Origin: a virus
Taxonomy: Duplodnaviria > Heunggongvirae > Uroviricota > Caudoviricetes
IMG/VR virus record: IMGVR_UViG_2713896775_000002
Coordinates: 1 to 7,605 of that record
Length of the DNA stretch: 7,605 nt
Reading direction: 5' to 3' (one strand)
The position numbers and the translations under genes are program-made. This document shows, piece by piece, positions 50 through 7,482 of the stretch (the stretch's first letter is position 1; every line of letters starts with the position of its first letter). Under the pieces are notes generated by a model, which saw only the letters and a program-made list of their open reading frames with translations, did no database searches and had not been told where the DNA came from.

Positions 50-3000
50 TCAATGTTCGCTTCCTGTTAACTGCCCGACAAGTGCAACCAGTTCGCTTAC
101 CTGATTTTCCAGAGTGCTGATCCGGGTGCCTGCTGTTGCCAGATTTTGACGTAGCGTTGTGTTTTCCTCTTCCAGCGCGGTAACGCGATCATCTGTTTCA
201 CGGGCGACCTGAACAAGTAAACCCGTCACGGCGGAGTAGTCAACATTAAGATAGCGAGTTTCTTCGCGTAGCTCGTTGCCGTCAACGGTCGGACCTTGCA
301 ACTCTTCACCATAATGAGTAAACGATCCCACAGCTTCTGGTATCGCCTCCATTACTTCCTGTGCAATAACGCCAGCATAAGGCATCCCGTTTTCCCTGAG
401 CGTGTAGGTGTATCCGTTCATTTTACGGATTGCTTTCGTCGCGTCGCTGATAACGAGAATATCGTCTTTAAGGTCGCGGTCTGATGACTGATTCAGCGTT
501 GTGCAATTAATAGCGCCATTTACATCAAACAACTGGCCTGCTGACGTTTTTTGCGCATAAAACAGATACGCAGCAGACGTTCCAACCTCAAAAACGTTTT
601 GTCGAGTACTGGAACCCCACACCCTGACAGAAAACGGTAGTTCTGCATTACCTGAGTTCTGTAAAACAAAACGATTACCAGTCCCTGATTGCTTTGTAAG
701 GGTTAAATCAACGGTTGAGTTAACCTCATTCTTGTTGATAGTGAGCGTCTGCGCTGTAGCCCCGTTAACAGCACCTGTTTTGAGTTGAACCGCGCCGTCA
801 TTACCATTTAACAGTATCTCAGCTCCGCTAAAGAAATTTTTTAGCGACAGCATCTTACTTACGCCGACTGATGAACCCAACGCCCACACGAGAGAATTAC
901 CGGTGCTATCAAACCCACGTACAAAGCAATCCATTTTGCTATAGTCTGACGTGCTTCCAAGGACATCAATTCGCCCTCCGCCAGATTTTACCGGGTTAGA
1001 TGTGGTTAATGACCTGACAGCAAGATCGGTAGATGAATTGAGATCGTCTACTGTTAGTAATTTCTTCCATTCCTGCGTCGTTCCATTTTCAATTGTTCTT
1101 CCCCAAAAACCGGAATTGCGGCCTCCGAACTGCACAGCATAATTTTTACTAAATTGAACATGAATGCCGCCAAGAACCATAGAGCCTGCCGGGCCGTTTG
1201 TACTGCCTGCAATTGGTATAAATTTATTAATGTTATCAGTATGCTGCGTGTTCCAGTCTCGCCCTGTTTTTGTAAGCAGTCCTAATGTCGTGTCGAGCGC
1301 TTCGGTTAAAGTAAGATTTTTAAATTTAACTGCGCTACTTTCGCCAAGACTTAAGTTGTTTCGCGCATCTTCTACTGTTGTCGCACCTGTACCTCCTTGC
1401 CCAACAGCTAATGGCAACCAGCCAGTGCCATTATGACAACCCCACAAACCAGATTTGGAAACCTGTAAGCGTGGTGCGCCTGAAGAATACGTAGAATATA
1501 CGTAAGTTGTTTCTTTTCCCTCTTCAACCCTTTCTGTTGATACATCTCTCTTCCATTCAGACCAGGTACCGCTTCCTCCTTCATATATTCGTCTATAAGT
1601 AATTCCCGGATTATTATAAGGGTAGTACACCTGAACGCAGGAAGAAGCAGTGTTGGCTCTCGTTTGGAGCACTATTAAAGCGCCCGCCAGACCGATTGGG
1701 TAATTTAATTCTTCTGTTGCGTAAGCGCTCGTTGGTTGTTGATAGAAACCAGAATATTCACCGGTAAGGGTGTTTAGGTCAGTATTAGCAAGGCCAGCTT
1801 TTTGCTCATACATTACCCGCAAGTTCGCACGTGCTTGCTCGATAGTTCTTCCACCAGTACCACCCTGGGCTAAACCTAACGGAGACCATTGTCCAGAAGA
1901 AGAATCATAAACCCCCCAACTCCCGTTAGTATGGATTTCAAAGAAACGATCACCAGTTGGACCATACATACGAGTTGTTGATTCATTTTGACCAAAGCGG
2001 CTTAATTCATCTCTGCGGGTATGACGTATCCATTGCGGGCCAGAACTTTGGCAGTAAATGTACGAATACAATGATTTTGTATCTGAACCAACAAATAGAC
2101 CGGAATATCTTTTTGTTGACACTTCTGATCTAACTATATAACCAGAAATAAGATTATCCCCGGCACTAGACGCTACTGATGGATAACCTTTCGCTGAGAT
2201 GTAAATCCTGATAAATCCAATATAACCTGATGGCTCAACAGAGATATCAGTGCAGGTCATAGCAACTTCACCAAGACCAATATTGTTACCAACAACGGAT
2301 TGTGCCTGGTTGCGATAATTAAGTGCGTCCGCTGCAGATTTCGCCGCGTTTGTTTCACTGGATTTAGCATTAGTTTCGCTGCTCTTTGCTGCTGCCTCGC
2401 TATTTTTCGCATTGGTTTCTGATTTTTTGGCTGCTGTCGCGGAGTTTGCCGATGCAGTTTGTGAGGCCGCTGCCGCCTGTGCGCTGTTATCCGCATTCGT
2501 CTCAGACGTTTTTGCGGCCTTCGCGGAATTTCCTGCCGCCGTTGCCGAAGAGGCTGCACTACTGGCGCTCGAGGCTGCGCTCGTTTCTGATGATTTCGCT
2601 GCCTCTTTTGAGGCCGCCGCATCCCGGGCTGAGGTGGCAGCTTCTGACGCTTTCGTGGTCGCGGTGGATGCAGAAGTGGCTGCAGATTTTTGTGACGCTG
2701 CAGCATTCGTTTCTGACGTTTTCGCCGCACCGGCACTGGTAGCCGCCGCGCTTTTTGAGGACTCTGCAGCGGCAGCACTTTTTGATGCTTCAGTAGCCTT
2801 TGTTGATGCCGTTCCTGCGCTGGAAGACGCTGACTGAGCCGACGTCGCGGCCTGCCCGGCTGATGTGCTGGCTGCACGTGCTGAGCCTGCAGCATCAGTC
2901 GCATGGGTTGCCGCCTTACGGGCTGATGTGCCGGCATCGCTGGCTGACTTCTTCGCGGCTGCCGTGTTCTGTGCCACTGCGGACGCGTTACGCGCCACCT

Positions 3001-3334
3001 CTTCCACCATCAGTTCAAAGCGGCGCAGTGCCTCCGGACGGGCATCATCCTCCGTCATGGCACCGAGAAAATCATTCAGCGTACCCGGTTGTGAGTCTTC
3101 ATACACGGTGATGGTCCCGGCATGCGATGGCGGGAAGCCTTCCACCATCAGAATAACGCTGTACTGACCGTACTCAACGTCCATGCTGTAACGCCCGGCT
3201 TCATCCGGATTTTCTGAGGCCACCGTGTTCACCACCACCGTGGTGCTGTTACGTTTTGCTTTCAGCTGGATTGTGCAGTTCTGTACCGGTTTACCTGCAC
3301 CGTCTTTCAGTACACCTGAAATCTTTACTGCCAT
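50..3334 (-). CDS. stf: Side tail fibre protein (Stf-like): lambda-type N-terminus, Ala/Ser-rich shaft, non-lambda distal region, C-terminal intramolecular chaperone domain
   Basis: About 1094 codons ending at TGA 50-52. From the ATG at 3334 the N-terminus MAVKISGVLKDGAGKPVQNCTIQLKAKRNSTTVVVNTV...GFPPSHAGTITVYEDSQPGTLNDF matches the lambda Stf N-terminus as I recall it. The ORF track begins two codons earlier at an in-frame GTG (3340); I prefer the ATG because it matches lambda and has a G-rich stretch (GTGGGG) upstream. The C-terminus carries the intramolecular-chaperone motif (see 53..484). Confidence 0.85.
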   Translation of the reverse strand: MAVKISGVLKDGAGKPVQNCTIQLKAKRNSTTVVVNTVASENPDEAGRYSMDVEYGQYSVILMVEGFPPSHAGTITVYEDSQPGTLNDFLGAMTEDDARPEALRRFELMVEEVARNASAVAQNTAAAKKSASDAGTSARKAATHATDAAGSARAASTSAGQAATSAQSASSSAGTASTKATEASKSAAAAESSKSAAATSAGAAKTSETNAAASQKSAATSASTATTKASEAATSARDAAASKEAAKSSETSAASSASSAASSATAAGNSAKAAKTSETNADNSAQAAAASQTASANSATAAKKSETNAKNSEAAAKSSETNAKSSETNAAKSAADALNYRNQAQSVVGNNIGLGEVAMTCTDISVEPSGYIGFIRIYISAKGYPSVASSAGDNLISGYIVRSEVSTKRYSGLFVGSDTKSLYSYIYCQSSGPQWIRHTRRDELSRFGQNESTTRMYGPTGDRFFEIHTNGSWGVYDSSSGQWSPLGLAQGGTGGRTIEQARANLRVMYEQKAGLANTDLNTLTGEYSGFYQQPTSAYATEELNYPIGLAGALIVLQTRANTASSCVQVYYPYNNPGITYRRIYEGGSGTWSEWKRDVSTERVEEGKETTYVYSTYSSGAPRLQVSKSGLWGCHNGTGWLPLAVGQGGTGATTVEDARNNLSLGESSAVKFKNLTLTEALDTTLGLLTKTGRDWNTQHTDNINKFIPIAGSTNGPAGSMVLGGIHVQFSKNYAVQFGGRNSGFWGRTIENGTTQEWKKLLTVDDLNSSTDLAVRSLTTSNPVKSGGGRIDVLGSTSDYSKMDCFVRGFDSTGNSLVWALGSSVGVSKMLSLKNFFSGAEILLNGNDGAVQLKTGAVNGATAQTLTINKNEVNSTVDLTLTKQSGTGNRFVLQNSGNAELPFSVRVWGSSTRQNVFEVGTSAAYLFYAQKTSAGQLFDVNGAINCTTLNQSSDRDLKDDILVISDATKAIRKMNGYTYTLRENGMPYAGVIAQEVMEAIPEAVGSFTHYGEELQGPTVDGNELREETRYLNVDYSAVTGLLVQVARETDDRVTALEEENTTLRQNLATAGTRISTLENQVSELVALVGQLTGSEH
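53..484 (-). other. C-terminal intramolecular chaperone / self-cleaving domain of Stf (endosialidase-chaperone, peptidase S74-like)
   Basis: The last 144 residues begin SDRDLKDDILVISDATKAIRKMNGYTYTL...YAGVIAQEV and end in a predicted coiled-coil-like tail (ALEEENTTLRQNLATAGTRISTLENQVSELVALV). The S-D-R-x-L-K-x-x-I start and the overall pattern match the auto-cleaving C-terminal chaperone domains of phage K1F endosialidase and T5 L-shaped tail fibre, recalled from the literature and not searched. Confidence 0.65.
1343..1414 (-). repeat. Phage tail-fibre 'QGGTG' repeat motif, copy 2 (within stf)
   Basis: Stf residues about 643-666 read LPLAVGQGGTGATTVEDARNNLSLG, sharing the W..PL(A/G)..QGGTG.(R/T)T.E.AR.NL pattern with copy 1. 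It matches the short conserved tail-fibre repeat seen in many enterobacterial phage fibres. Confidence 0.6.
1814..1882 (-). repeat. Phage tail-fibre 'QGGTG' repeat motif, copy 1 (within stf)
   Basis: Stf residues about 487-509 read PLGLAQGGTGGRTIEQARANLRV. I verified the codons GCC CAG GGT GGT ACT GGT GGA on the minus strand at about 1850-1870. Confidence 0.6.
2320..3015 (-). repeat. Ala/Ser/Thr-rich low-complexity shaft region of Stf with degenerate tandem repeats
   Basis: Stf residues about 110-340 are dominated by A, S, T, K and E, with recurring (A)K(T/S)SETNA units at residues 206-213, 276-283, 305-311, 319-325 and 326-332. The DNA shows matching imperfect repeats (for example GCATTCGTTTCTGACGTTTTCGCC near 2703 and GCATTCGTCTCAGACGTTTTTGC near 2494). 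The compositional bias produces the spurious overlapping ORFs in other frames here. Confidence 0.75.
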
Positions 3335-3344
3335 ATTCACCCCA

Positions 3345-3398: not shown

Positions 3399-3998
3399 TC
3401 AGAATTTATAACCGACACCCACGATGAAACCGTCAGTGCGCCAGTCACCACTGCCGGAGCCTTCATAAGCAATATCAATGGCCACGGATTCGGTCGGGTT
3501 AAACTGCACGCCAGCCCCCCACGCCAGAGACGTGTTGCTGCGGCGACCGTCATCACTTCCGGTCAGCACTTCGTGCGTTTTCCCCTTGTTGTCAGTTACG
3601 CGGAGATAATCCCCGGAGAAAGTCGAAACACGGCTGTAAGCCACACCCGCCATCGCATACGCGCTAAACCATTCATTCACGCGCACAGACGGCCCCGCCA
3701 TCACGCTGAACCAGCGGTTACGCACGGAATCTTCATGCCAGCGGGTATCGCTGTAATGAGTCAGCTGGCGATTCTTGTCTTCTGCATAGCTGAATGACGT
3801 CACCATCCCCAGCGTGTCCGTAAACTCATAGCGGTATTTCACGTTAATCCCGTTAAGATCATCGCTGCCGGGAACGTTCGTCGAGGCATGAAGATACCCC
3901 GCGCTCAGCGTGGACTGATGTTCAGACGCCCATGCAGGCGCACCGGATACGACCAGACAGATGGCTGCGGACAAAATGGCTGCACAAACTTTACGCAT
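3399..3998 (-). CDS. lom: Lom outer-membrane protein (Ail/Lom/PagC family beta-barrel), 199 aa
   Basis: N-terminal signal peptide MRKVCAAILSAAICLVVSGAPAWA with an AWA|S cleavage site. C-terminus ...DWRTDGFIVGVGYKF ends in Phe, as is typical of outer-membrane beta-barrels. The sequence closely matches lambda Lom as I recall it. RBS GAGAGG lies 6 nt upstream of ATG at 3998. Position between J and stf matches lambda. Confidence 0.93.
   Translation of the reverse strand: MRKVCAAILSAAICLVVSGAPAWASEHQSTLSAGYLHASTNVPGSDDLNGINVKYRYEFTDTLGMVTSFSYAEDKNRQLTHYSDTRWHEDSVRNRWFSVMAGPSVRVNEWFSAYAMAGVAYSRVSTFSGDYLRVTDNKGKTHEVLTGSDDGRRSNTSLAWGAGVQFNPTESVAIDIAYEGSGSGDWRTDGFIVGVGYKF
3927..3998 (-). other. Sec signal peptide of Lom (about 24 aa)
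   Basis: A basic N-terminus (MRK), a hydrophobic core (VCAAILSAAICLVV) and an A-x-A-like cleavage motif (AWA-SE). Confidence 0.7.
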
Positions 3999-4068: not shown

Positions 4069-7000
4069 TCAACGAATACTGATGCCGGAAGCAGCCTTTT
4101 TGGTCACAATCACCGTACAGTCGGTGATATTGCCTGCCCCCTGATTGCCTTTCTGGAAAATCTTAAACTCCAGAGTGACGCTTCCCCTGCCACTCGGCAT
4201 ATCAATAACCGCACTGTAACTACCGGGAATGGCCCCTTTAGTTTCTCTGGATGCGATTAATACGCCGTTTTTGCGAACTTCAAAACCATACCCCGTGTAC
4301 CTTGTACCTCCCGGGTTATCACCACTTCCCGGATCATCATACGCTATACCGTTAAAGATAATGGGCGGAATAATGATTTGACGGTCAAAGTTATGATCAT
4401 CGCTGATGGTGACTGTAACCGTCCCGTCTGGTGTTTCCGTGTTACCCCACGTACCAGCCTTTTTCGGGAATGATTTGGATACTGTTTTAACAAAATCACC
4501 TCTGACCTGATTCGCCTCCAGCATGCCCTTAATCGTACAGTTTTCATTTATCGTGACGTTGTTGAGCGTCCCGGAGTTCGCATTCACACTGCCACTAATA
4601 TCCGCATTTTTAGCGGCCAGCTTTCCGTCCGGTGTCAGGGAAAATACCGGTGGATTTCCACCACTGGTAATGGTGGAGGCCGTCAGGCGTTTCAGGAACA
4701 CGTCGTTCATGAATATCTGGTTGCCCTGCGCCACAAACATCGGCGTTTCATTCCCGTTTGCCGGGTCAATAAACGCGATACGGTTAGCAGCAACCAGAAA
4801 CTGGCTCAGTTTGCCTTCCTCTGTATCCTCCATGCTGAGGCCAAGCCCCGCGACATAATGCTTACCGTCTTCGGTCTGCTCAATTTTGACGCCCCACATG
4901 GCATTCCATTTATCGTTGGCGTCTTTCCACTCTTTCGAAAACTCCTCCAGTCTGCTGGCGTTATCCTCCGTCAGGTCGACTTTTTCCAGCAGCTCCTTGC
5001 CGAGATGGGATTCGGTTATCTGGCCTTTGAAAAAATCCAGGTAACCTTCCGCATCATCGCTCGCCCGACCGACGGCCTCCACAAATGCCGATTTGCCTAC
5101 GGTGTTCACACTGCGGATATAAAAGTAATAATCATGGCCCGGTTTGATATTGATACTGGCGGCTATCCAGTACAGCGCCGTACCAAGATAGCGGGCTGTG
5201 GTTTCAACCTGCCTGATATCCGCAATCCGCTTTTCCGAGAACCAGAACTCAAACTGTACCGTCGGATCATAAACCGCAAGATGCGGCGTGGCGGTTATCT
5301 GAAAATAGCCCGGCGTCAGCTCAATCCGCGACGGCGCTGCCGGTGCGGCGATCCGGAACGATACCGATGCCGGATCGCCCTGCTGTCCCCATGCATTTAC
5401 CGCCCGGACTGTCAGCCTGTAATTTCCCAGCGCCAGCTGCCTGAAGCGATATGTGGTTTCCGTCGTCCGGGCCGTGCTGACCAGCCGCTCACTGCCGTCG
5501 TCCGCTGCCACGGTCAGGCGAAGCATAAAGCTCACACCCTTCACCACCTTCGGCGTGTCCCAGCGGGCCAGTACCTGATACTCCCCGCTGTCTGCGGTGA
5601 CTTCGGCAGTCAGGTGCTGCACCGCTGGCGGCGTGACACCATTCACCGTGCCGCTCTGGTCGCTGTCAAAGTGCGCCCCGTTATCCACGATGGCCTCTTT
5701 TTCAGGTACATGCTGCACGGCGGTGATGGCATACGTGCCGTCGTCGTTCTCACGGATACTCACGCAGCGGAACAGGCGCTGGCGCAGCGTCGGCAGCTTC
5801 AGCCCCCACACGCTGTATCCGGCAACGCCGTCAGGAACCCGGCTCACTTTTACCTTCACGCCGTCGGTGACGGACTGAACCTCCACGCTGACCGGATTGC
5901 CATTTCCGTCAACCAGGCTTATCAGCGTGGTGCCGGAGGATGGCAGCGTGATTTCACGGTCGAGCGTCAGCGTCCGGGTCTGGCTGTTCACCGCCAGCAC
6001 GCGCCCGCCGGTGCTGATACCGGCATAGTCATCATCGCAGATTTCAATGACATCGCCCGGTACATGGCGAAGCCCTTCAGCACCCACGCTGAAGTCCACG
6101 GTCTGCGTTTCCAGCAGCTCCGTTTTAATCAGCCACAGCCCGGCGCGGTGTGCCTGCCCCCGGCTGGTACAGCCAAAGGCATCCATCTTCGTGACATTAC
6201 GACCGTAACGGGCAATGGCCTGCGTATCTTCAACAAGCTCTGTCGCCGTCTCCCAGCCGTTGTTCGGGTCAATCCAGTTCACCTCAACGGCATTATGGCG
6301 GTCCTTCAGGGCGCTGAAGCTGTAGCGGAACGGCGCGCCATCATCCGGCATCACCACATTACTGCGGTTATAGGTCCATACCTTATCTGATGGTCGGTCC
6401 TGCACGAACGTCAGCGTCTGCCCGTTCCATACCGGCATACAGCGCATCGCCGAGCAGAAATCACTGAGAACATCCCACGCCTTACGCTGTGTGGTCAGCC
6501 AGGCATTACAGGTGATGCGCGGCTCCGTGCCGCCAAAACCATTCGGTACCAACTGGTCGCAGTACTGGCCGATAACGTACAGCGTCCATTTGTCCACATC
6601 TGCCGCACCAAGACGTTTCCCCATGCCGTAGCGCGGATGGGTCAGCATATCCCACAGACACCAGGCCATGTTGTTGCTGTATGCCGGTTTTAACGTTCCG
6701 TCCCAGATACCACTGTATTGCCGCGTCTGCGGGTTATAGTTCGACGGCACCTGCAGAATGCGCCCGCGAAGATGATAATTACGGCTCACCTGCTGGCTGC
6801 CGAACTGCTCCGAATCCACCTGTACGCCGACCAGTGCCGTGTTCGGGTAGCACTGTTTCACATCGATGATTTCGGTGTATGACGACCAGAGCGTTTTGTT
6901 CTGCAGCTGGTCTGTGGTGCTGTCCGGCGTCATCCTGCGCATCCGGATATTGAACGGGCGCGGCGGCAGGTTACCCACCACCACCGATGCCAGATACTGT

Positions 7001-7482
7001 GAGGTGGCTTTGCCTTTAATGGTGATGTCTTTTTCCGTCACCCAGCCACCGTTACGTTGTATCTGAACCAGCAGGCGGACTTCCGACGGATTCCGGTCCC
7101 CCTTTGAGGTGGTTTCCACCAGTGCCTGCACACCGAAGGTAAAGCGCAGTCGGTCGATGTTTGCCGACGTGATGGTGCGGGTGATCGGCGTGTCGTATTT
7201 CACTTCCGTACCCAGCACCGTCTCGGAGCCGGAGGATTCAAATCCCTCCGGCGGAGTCTGCTCCTGCTCACCGGCCCGGAACACCACCGTGACACCGGCG
7301 ATGTTGGTATTCCCCTCACTGTCCAGCACCGGCGTACTGTTCAGCAGCACGCTTTTTAATCCATCCACCGGACCTTCAATCGGCCCTTCACTGATGGCAT
7401 CAATCACACTCAGCAACTGCGTGGATTTCAGGTTGTCCTTCGCTTCGCGCGGGGTATGCCCCTTACTGCTGCCTTTACCCAT
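4069..7482 (-). CDS. J: Host specificity protein J (central tail fibre / tail tip protein), 1137 aa
   Basis: Uninterrupted 1137-aa ORF. The N-terminus [41 protein letters not shown] and most of the length match lambda J as I recall it, including fibronectin-III-like central segments. ATG at 7482 is preceded by GGAG with an 8-nt spacer. Size and position before lom match lambda. Confidence 0.95.

Follow-up and report, generated by a model that had tools for sequence, protein, structure and literature searches.

How is a phage side tail fibre assembled when a short glycine-rich motif, QGGTG, recurs in the middle of its sequence, and do such motifs mark the places where its modules are duplicated or exchanged? 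This question is raised by positions 1343-1882 of a 7,605-nucleotide stretch of tailed-phage DNA (the whole stretch analyzed, hereafter the window), where an earlier note had read two such motifs as signs of stacked or duplicated distal modules. The reading we favor, to which we give a probability of about three in four, is that the encoded protein, Stf, is a modular trimeric fibre with a duplicated connector that links globular domains and serves as a module joint, each QGGTG motif being the conserved core of one connector copy.

The stf gene and its lambda-type frame

According to the list of open reading frames of the window, stf (50..3340, minus strand, as are all Stf features below) is the sole long frame spanning positions 1343-1882 and encodes 1096 aa counted from a GTG codon, the start that our residue numbers assume. 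The real start is more probably the ATG at 3334; the resulting MAVKISG start, two codons further in, is that of most annotated relatives and of the solved lambda Stf N-terminus. In the same list, lom (3399-3998) and the tail tip gene J (4069-7482) are found upstream on the same strand, the J-lom-stf order being also annotated in phage mEp460. E. coli RMDEC332 carries a full-length match to stf with 99.3% DNA identity, at least 80% of the gene is covered in 116 genomes, and the protein already bears the RefSeq name "pyocin knob domain-containing S74 family peptidase". Stf belongs, as side tail fibre, to a lambda-like E. coli prophage and has the ordinary, previously annotated modular build of phage fibres; such a mosaic architecture is expected of a prophage fibre and raises no new biological question.

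The tail-attachment domain (aa 3-136; 2933..3334) belongs to Pfam PF08400 (phage_tail_N; E 3.9e-72, 241 bits for a cut-off of 26.6) and matches the solved lambda Stf N-terminus 9e7m_Ta (E 4e-52), making it a lambda-type anchor. The PF08400 domain and the J-lom-stf order are shared with lambda-family Stf (mEp460, PhiR70_1, Ayreon and the Rac/Qin stfR-type genes), whose genes are more than 90% identical to this stf over the first 980-1130 nt. Lambda's own Stf differs in its distal half and needs Tfa, whereas the present allele has two GGTG connectors and a knob as well as a predicted self-cleaving S74 chaperone, and its relatives have only a tfa remnant downstream.

At the other end, the S74 intramolecular chaperone (aa 953-1096; 53..484) is identified by Pfam PF13884 (aa 953-1004, beginning at D953; E 8.6e-12, 45.6 bits for a gathering cut-off of 22) and by a match to 6f45_A. 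The SSDRD residues (aa 951-955) lie in CTTLNQSSDRDLKDD (aa 946-960), and the conserved Ser-Asp cleavage context NQSSDRDLKDD aligns with SSDRRIKKD of S16 gp37; self-cleavage is predicted at NQSS/DRDLK, between the second serine and the aspartate. An independent homology block begins at aa 950, by the S74 boundary. Other S74 fibres and spikes, such as K1F endosialidase, the T5-type L-shaped fibre and the class TC12 lateral fibres of BASEL phages (PMC12143355), likewise end in a PF13884 domain, have its SSDRDLK context and carry permutable subdomains ahead of it, and the lateral fibre of phage FritzHoffmann is 76% identical to stf at the DNA level over aa 692-1052. These S74 fibres differ from Stf by their N-terminal anchor and by their inserted modules. 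Between the two ends, within aa 137-952, no match was found in Pfam and NCBIfam.

The duplicated element is a connector

The two QGGTG copies (aa 492-496, positions 1853-1867; aa 648-652, positions 1385-1399) are 156 residues apart, close to the 155 or so first estimated, and the wider ranges first assigned to them (aa 487-509 and 643-666) correspond to positions 1814-1882 and 1343-1414. Both are preceded, as had been described, by a W-x-P-L context, in WSPLGLAQGGTG and WLPLAVGQGGTG, and followed by xxTxExAR-NL; the Gly/Tyr/Trp-rich segment reported after copy 1, SSCVQVYYPYNNPGITYRRIYEGGSGTWSEWKR, is located there. The repeated 5-mer alone is not significant, since at least one turns up in 989 of 5000 shuffles of aa 366-950, and this frequency of about 20% is what would speak for two copies having arisen by chance in a fibre rich in Gly. 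The similarity is however far more extended. Self-BLAST aligns aa 425-507 with 582-663 (34% identity, E 4e-12), the Smith-Waterman score of aa 449-509 against 603-666 is 100, compared with 27 +/- 5.4 and a maximum of 56 in 2000 shuffles (z 13.6), the two connector family profiles match each other in hhalign with 99.9% probability (E 1.7e-31), and the same unit is present in hundreds of fibres. The alignment and profile scores refute chance, which retains a practically negligible probability.

What has been duplicated is a connector, about 61-64 residues long, in which a short beta-sheet is followed by "W-PL--QGGTG--T---AR-NL". Copy 1 (aa 449-509; 1814..1996), backed by hhalign and AF2, has four to five short beta-strands and then WSPLGLAQGGTGGRTIEQARANL, AF2 placing the strands at aa 455-486 and a helix at 500-507. 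Copy 2 (aa 603-666; 1343..1534), backed by self-alignment, hhalign and AF2, has beta-strands followed by WLPLAVGQGGTGATTVEDARNNLSLG, AF2 placing the strands at aa 604-636 and a helix at 656-662. The copies are 36% identical in protein and 50% identical in DNA, the longest exact run being 5 nt, inside the motif, which implies that the duplication is old and has left no DNA repeat.

The domains around the connectors are probably not duplicates

Following the N-terminal domain, an Ala/Ser-rich rod with SETNAK-type repeats (aa 137-365; 2246..2932, from reading the sequence) shows weak matches to coiled-coil or fibre rods, 8hqz_d and 7boz_a among them, and a 7-aa indel separates alleles there. DNA homology with most lambdoid Stf genes stops at aa 326 or 377. 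A first globular module, module 0 (aa 366-448; 1997..2245), precedes connector copy 1 and is modeled with five beta-strands and short helices (AF2 model 1; pLDDT 64 at aa 366-375, 78-89 over aa 376-448). Profile searches gave no sequence match between module 0 and the knob profile or the PDB, and its hhalign comparison with the knob was not significant. It has a local GC content of 38% and is swapped as a unit in strain GF130, with a junction at about aa 434-445.

Directly after copy 1, aa 510-602 (1535..1813) form a canonical pyocin-knob domain with a five- or six-stranded antiparallel beta-sheet fold. It matches the R1 pyocin fibre 6CL5, aa 524-602 aligning with R1 residues ~459-532 (Knob2) in an alignment of E 2.3e-6, and the same domain occurs in 145 of 149 representative matches. 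The pyocin knob is a mobile fibre domain (PMC12143355), and the Stf knob may bind sugars.

Connector copy 2 is followed by a linker (aa 667-689; 1274..1342) with AF2 pLDDT below 50, in the region where DNA homology to other alleles resumes (aa 678 or 691/692), and by module 2 (aa 690-768; 1037..1273), a divergent five-strand domain, possibly knob-like (hhalign; AF2 model 2, strands at aa 710-761, pLDDT 63-77). Its profile has no solved relative and no sequence match in the PDB; module 2 is common to mEp460, where no GGTG motif stands ahead of it. The knob HMM, built from the 149 representatives, detects only aa 510-602 in Stf and neither module 0 nor module 2 (score -1.8 for the latter), and the hhalign comparison of module 2 with the knob family is weak (probability 38%, E 3.3e-4, 48 columns). 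Module 2, as judged from such profiles, would be at best a divergent knob. Beyond it, a distal beta-rich domain (aa 769-952; 485..1036), the presumed receptor-binding tip, extends to the chaperone.

This map bears on the proposal that Stf has a knob module in duplicate, with a QGGTG boundary motif at the head of each copy and a separate receptor-binding function in each. One true knob does follow copy 1, aa 690-768 weakly resemble the knob profile, and R-pyocin fibres have two tandem knobs, with variable putative binding sites mapping to Knob2 and the foot (PMC6116203). However, the duplicated sequence is the connector rather than the modules, aa 690-768 are missed by the knob HMM and modeled with low confidence, and the usual position of a receptor-binding tip, before the chaperone, is taken by a separate 184-residue domain, so that we find two knob functions rather doubtful. 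The duplication that the earlier note suspected is genuine, but it concerns the connector and not the domains behind it, which hhalign and the knob profile separate; likewise, the two successive globular modules are present behind the motifs, but a third one, module 0, stands upstream of copy 1.

Likeness to R-type pyocin fibres and to lectins

The motif has a structural counterpart in the R1 pyocin fibre, where LPLARGGLGANTAAGARNNIG aligns with the motif of connector copy 2 (6cl5_A 256-276). With an offset of 317, the HNH and GAGVP residues at chain positions 244/246 and 279 become His561/His563 and Val596, the iron and magnesium ligands of R1 (PMC6116203); as these named ligands are reproduced exactly, LPLARGGLGANTAAGARNNIG is R1 573-593, i.e., the end of the Shaft (529-598), directly ahead of the lectin foot. 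The Shaft-end pattern of R-pyocins, LPL--GG-GA-T---AR-N-G with a globular domain next, is found in Stf, for which AF2 predicts a turn and helix at both copies (block pLDDT 74-79 for the first helix and 75-77 for the second); the models are of monomers, and their inter-domain geometry (TM 0.16-0.2) is meaningless. SU10 gp12 has two tandem motif copies, but its structure (7z47) gives none for the motif because only the first 90 residues were built. R1/R2 pyocin fibres (6CL5/6CL6; Buth et al., 2018, PMC6116203) are trimeric fibres in which slender segments alternate with knobs and in which the motif ends the Shaft before the next globular domain. They differ from Stf in that their HxH iron site is missing from the Stf connectors, their knob-to-motif segment is a helix-plus-turn Shaft rather than a lectin-like beta unit, their C-terminus is a lectin foot with a separate chaperone rather than an S74 chaperone, and their N-terminus is not the lambda-type siphovirus anchor of Stf.

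As a side observation, the beta part of the connector resembles the subdomains of monocot mannose-binding (beta-prism II) lectins. All 10 PDB matches of its family profile at E<=1 have the monocot mannose-binding lectin fold (pyocin L2 at 6.5e-8, then 1.5e-6, 0.0034 and weaker), and the reversed-sequence control gave no match in the PDB. In these bulb-type lectins, including pyocin L1/L2, three subdomains per chain form the prism, whereas the Stf connector has a single one of ~37 residues; furthermore, the QxDxNxVxY mannose signature is degenerate in Stf, which has HTNGSWGVY and SKSGLWGCH at these positions (H-N-S-G-Y and S-S-L-G-H). Some relatives come close to the signature, for example with IQNDGNWGAY in a connector repeat of P0173, and three-chain beta-prism II nodes are known in K1F endosialidase, T4 gp34 and CBA120 TSP4 (PMC8825819). 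A bolder proposal, which we put forward only tentatively, would be that the ~60-residue connector is a widespread block undetected by Pfam-A models whose beta part derives from a single monocot-mannose-binding-lectin subdomain, that three such sheets make a beta-prism II node in the homotrimer, that fibres keeping Q-D-N-x-Y may retain sugar pockets along their shaft, and that the GGTG helix-turn is a preferred splice point for knobs and tips. The lectin-like origin is a modest structural lead.

A widespread fibre repeat

The connector has no matching Pfam family, and no description of the GGTG motif itself was found in the literature. As a first homologue search returned 24 mostly partial proteins, an alignment-based search was used instead, and a profile of motif plus knob retrieved 594 representative proteins at E<=1e-3. 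The best 149 of these 594 contain 278 knob domains, with two or more in 60 proteins, and 138 motifs, 55 of which are located 10-20 residues ahead of a knob; in the same 149, the distances between motifs fall into clusters of 60-79 and 100-160 residues. The connector is thus a repeat with a wide occurrence among fibres. In some of them (P0022, P0141, P0235, P0259, P0173), it forms back-to-back arrays, with a copy about every 60 residues and no knobs, while others alternatively have knobs between connector copies.

The motif as one of several joints

The shuffling of modules at the motif, also put forward in the earlier note, is borne out by E. coli Stf alleles, whose exchange joints coincide with QGGTG among several other joints. 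The stf genes of mEp460 and PhiR70_1 share ~95-100% identity as far as the HGGTGA codons but are unrelated past codon 510, diverging inside the motif. Across E. coli alleles, 13 upstream and 10 downstream types meet at the motif in 19 combinations, among them a complete 2x2 set; combinations are in excess by 6 at the motif versus 1-4 at 14 control offsets, an enrichment that rests on a small, redundant and mostly partial protein set. In the present allele, DNA homology boundaries fall mostly away from the motifs (aa 326, 377, 434, 678, 691/692, 774/775 and 950). Two further boundaries hit the motifs exactly but were rejected as evidence for motif-directed exchange, since neither is a module swap: the one at aa 493 is a lom-stf deletion with ~3-nt microhomology, and the one at aa 645 an IS1 truncation.

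The motif could also be a purely structural shaft repeat, its coincidence with junctions reflecting only selection for chimeras at any domain boundary. Tandem connector arrays without knobs, the many junctions at other boundaries and the poor conservation of the motif DNA are in keeping with this account. A point against our favored reading is that the motif is too short and DNA-divergent (5-nt runs within this gene) to drive RecA-type homologous exchange alone. Against a purely structural role, the mEp460/PhiR70_1 breakpoint falls within the motif codons, combinations are in greatest excess at the motif, and relaxed Rad52-type recombination at short diverged homologies is documented in temperate phages (PMC3945230). 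We regard a purely structural role as a serious possibility, albeit not the probable one. The generic shaft repeat devoid of boundary function, which the earlier note had named as refuting its own proposal, is borne out by half: the motif does belong to a generic shaft repeat, one that forms knob-free arrays in other fibres, but it still stands at domain boundaries and at one of several recombination joints.

A Chi-like sequence in copy 1 was considered and set aside. Copy 1 holds ACTGGTGG (positions 1851-1858, coding strand), one base off Chi (GCTGGTGG), and one-mismatch octamers number 16 in the window for 7.3 expected, an enrichment readily explained by Gly-rich coding; exact Chi is absent from the window, and other codons encode the motif in copy 2 and in most alleles, making a recombination signal in the motif DNA very improbable. 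A parallel is offered by the conserved 'His boxes' of T-even distal fibres, which reportedly mediate adhesin swapping, as described by Tetart et al. in 1998. Both systems have variable fibre modules with short conserved motifs on their flanks, where recombination joints also lie; the motifs (GxHxH versus QGGTG...AR-NL) and the fibres differ, and the Stf joints are known from sequence comparison.

Proposed build of the fibre and its use

In the modular fibre that we favor, the tail-attachment domain would be followed by the Ala/Ser-rich rod, module 0, connector 1, the pyocin knob, connector 2, the linker with the divergent knob-like module, the distal beta-rich tip and the S74 chaperone, the latter being presumably cleaved off. 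In each connector, the ~37-residue beta part would contribute one sheet per chain, the three chains forming a short triangular beta-prism node on the fibre axis, and 'PL--QGGTG--T---AR-NL' would then make a tight Gly turn and a short helix, as at the Shaft end of R-type pyocins. The connector may in this way keep the three chains in register as they run between successive globular domains. As it is conserved while the flanking domains vary, it appears to be one of several joints for module insertion or exchange.

Joints are seen at the rod end, between module 0 and its connector, at the GGTG motif, where module 2 begins, at aa 774/775 and at the S74 boundary. Delivery to gut bacteria is an aim of current engineering of lambda-derived particles fitted with chimeric Stf (PMC11338833). 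The value of such a map of natural joints is mainly practical, as it tells engineers where distal modules swap without disrupting trimer assembly.

A connector duplicated within the side tail fibre

Two QGGTG motifs about 155 residues apart in the side tail fibre protein Stf had been taken as a sign of stacked or duplicated distal modules. Both motifs are real: copy 1 (aa 492-496; window 1853-1867, minus strand) and copy 2 (aa 648-652; window 1385-1399, minus strand) lie 156 residues apart, with W-x-P-L upstream and xxTxExAR-NL downstream of each. As a repeated pentapeptide is present in 20% of shuffles of aa 366-950, it is weak evidence by itself; the similarity extends over the whole connector. 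Indeed, self-BLAST aligns aa 425-507 with 582-663 (34% identity, E 4e-12), Smith-Waterman alignment of aa 449-509 with 603-666 gives a score of 100 (shuffles, 27 +/- 5.4), and the family profiles of the two connector copies match in hhalign with 99.9% probability (E 1.7e-31). On the DNA, the copies are just 50% identical, with longest exact runs of 5 nt, in the motif. The connector duplication is old and at the protein level; it is not a DNA repeat.

There is hence a true internal duplication, but the repeat unit is the connector of 61-64 residues, '(D)RF-Q---T-i-sp----l-i---G-WG-y------W-PL---QGGTGA-T---AR-NL', and the globular parts between connectors are not copies of each other. The interpretation of the earlier note is thus partly right and must be re-centred on the connector. 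In the AF2 model of aa 366-790, whose pLDDT averages 69.8 and reaches 74-89 in blocks over aa 376-505 (module 0 and connector 1), the connector is predicted as four or five short strands leading through a turn to a short helix (aa 500-507 and again aa 656-662).

Pyocin-like and lectin-like features

Following connector copy 1, aa 510-602 are a canonical pyocin knob. An HMM of the knob, derived from 149 representatives, reaches 136 bits there and has no match elsewhere in Stf; in phmmer, the stretch aa 524-668 matches 6cl5_A, the fibre of R1 pyocin (E 2.3e-6), and the best Foldseek matches of the knob domain are 6cl5, 6cl6 and 6ct8 (probability 1.00). Tandem knobs and shaft motifs have been described in R-pyocin fibres (PMC6116203), and the pyocin knob has been listed as a mobile pseudo-domain across several fibre classes (PMC12143355).

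In the 6cl5_A alignment, the R1 HNH and GAGVP residues occupy chain positions 244/246 and 279, which an offset of 317 converts to His561/His563 and Val596. Since these are exactly the iron and magnesium ligands, respectively, named for R1 (PMC6116203), the R1 motif LPLARGGLGANTAAGARNNIG corresponds to residues 573-593, the final portion of the Shaft (529-598), directly ahead of the C-terminal lectin foot. A solved structure thus shows the counterpart of the Stf motif at the point where a shaft passes into a globular domain. The HxH iron site of the R1 Shaft is absent from the Stf connectors.

Regarding the beta parts of the connectors (aa 449-486 and 603-641; window 1883-1996 and 1418-1534, minus strand), their family profile of 37 positions matches, in the whole PDB, only monocot-mannose-binding-lectin (beta-prism II) proteins, including pyocin L2 (6.5e-8), pyocin L1 (1.5e-6), neoculin (0.0034), a mycobacterial lectin and garlic/snowdrop-type agglutinins, while a reversed-sequence control against the PDB gave nothing below E 0.33. 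Since K1F endosialidase, T4 gp34 and CBA120 TSP4 have trimeric beta-prism II nodes to which each chain adds one sheet (PMC8825819), a three-chain prism is a reasonable model, and the matches suggest that the connector may be such a node. Compared with monocot mannose-binding lectins, this Stf has a degenerate sugar-binding signature.

Distribution of the connector

When aa 481-610 were run with HMMER against the full set of 1.84 billion representatives, 594 proteins matched at E<=1e-3. The best 149 of these 594 hold 278 knob domains (up to seven per protein; at least two in 60 proteins) and 138 motifs, 55 of which sit 10-20 residues ahead of a knob and the others ahead of something else. Motif-to-motif spacing in the best 149 peaks at 60-79 residues (back-to-back connectors) and at 100-160 residues (connector plus knob). 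Several homologous fibres (P0022, P0141, P0235, P0259 and P0173) contain arrays of connectors only, so the motif belongs to a generic fibre repeat; among Pfam-A models, the connector has no match. A generic shaft repeat without boundary function was what the earlier note named as refuting its reading; the motif nevertheless regularly borders a globular domain.

Recombination at and away from the motif

The idea that breakpoints coincide with QGGTG finds partial support in allele comparisons. The stf genes of mEp460 and PhiR70_1 share 95% identity over nt 1-1527 and hardly differ at all before the HGGTGA codons; matches fall off within the motif (27/30, then 19/30) and are random beyond codon 510. 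In E. coli alleles, one upstream connector occurs with differing downstream modules and vice versa: after removal of two frameshift artefacts, 13 upstream and 10 downstream types form 19 combinations, with one complete 2x2 set. The combination excess is 6 at the motif vs 1-4 at 14 control offsets, in a small sample with many partial proteins, which makes enrichment of joints at the motif suggestive rather than proven. Two homologues (P0011 and P0017) have an additional module of ~150 residues between copy 2 and module 2 (aa 690-768), and this additional module is terminal in PhiR70_1. However, most points at which DNA homology between this allele and others breaks off lie away from the motif, at aa 326, 377, 434 (a module 0 swap in strain GF130), 678, 691/692, 774/775 and 950.

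The two boundaries exactly at the motifs were rejected as evidence for exchange there. The one at aa 493, on copy 1, is a lom-stf deletion in a widespread decayed prophage beside ydfJ, which fuses truncated lom to stf codon 493 (first G of GGTG); in E. coli CAVP888 (locus L001, 3990-4010) the junction has ~3 nt of microhomology (ATGG|TACTGG), and the same junction occurs in many genomes (matches H99-H111). The other, at aa 645, is an IS1B truncation of the same allele in a decayed prophage of E. coli ETEC1722 (by trkG/ynaK; locus L010, 2248-3000), which, four residues ahead of copy 2, mimics a motif-associated breakpoint.

The octamer ACTGGTGG (window 1851-1858, minus strand), encoded by T-G-G of motif copy 1, is one base off Chi (GCTGGTGG). 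The window holds no exact Chi and 16 octamers with one mismatch (7.3 expected), 14 of them on the coding strand; this enrichment probably just reflects how rich the coding sequence is in Gly.

The stf allele and its surroundings

The stf ORF (50..3340, minus strand; 1096 aa from GTG), which contains window 1343-1882, has lom (3399-3998) and, before it, a J-type tail-tip gene (4069-7482) upstream. This J-lom-stf order is the arrangement of lambdoid phages and is annotated likewise in mEp460. Two short ORFs embedded within the well-supported stf, 1164-1436 (plus) and 1408-1584 (minus, different frame), overlap this stretch and are unsupported. The allele is common: E. coli RMDEC332 matches it at 99.3% over the full length, at least 80% of stf is covered in 116 genomes, and its central region is found in 122 of 5426. 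RefSeq names are 'prophage tail fiber N-terminal domain-containing protein' or 'pyocin knob domain-containing S74 family peptidase'.

The ORF call begins Stf at GTG (window 3332-3340; MNMAVKISG), and an ATG lies two codons downstream (MAVKISG). The latter start is that of the solved lambda Stf N-terminus and of most annotated relatives, so that residue numbers here and in the earlier note may exceed those of the mature annotation by 2. GC content is 38% over module 0 (window 1921-2280), 43-48% across connectors, knob and tip, and 57-63% in the N-terminal domain and Ala-rich rod (window 2401-3120), a compositional mosaic explained in part by Ala codons. The Ala/Ser-rich rod has, at window about 2276-2440 (aa about 300-355), SETNAK-type heptad-like repeats, and a 7-residue indel (ASETNAK, strain GF130) distinguishes alleles there; rod length thus changes by whole repeat units.

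About 49 nt downstream of S74-terminated stf alleles, just past window position 1, lies a remnant of tfa (tail fibre assembly) without its N-terminus (loci L007 3827-3958, L008 4314-4448, L009 4333-4464 and L011 4541-4699). As S74 fibres carry their own chaperone, it looks like a scar left by a former distal module that depended on Tfa.

Concluding remarks

The best-supported reading of the connector's role is structural. Connectors would alternate with globular domains along the fibre, the Gly-rich turn and helix re-registering the three chains ahead of each following domain, as where the pyocin Shaft ends. Going by what is established for the family, folding presumably starts at the S74 chaperone of the C-terminus, and the chaperone would then be cleaved off. 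Because the connector is conserved while the modules on either side vary, chimeric fibres joined at this point probably fold, which would account for its recurrence as a joint; the short, diverged DNA homology of the motif may also promote exchange. Subdomains of S74-terminated fibres are described as permutable (PMC12143355) and chimeric lambda Stf proteins work (PMC11338833); the locus fits the already described fibre architecture of knobs, shaft motifs and permutable modules. Otherwise adding little new, the analysis has its value in a practical map of joints and a modest lectin-like lead.
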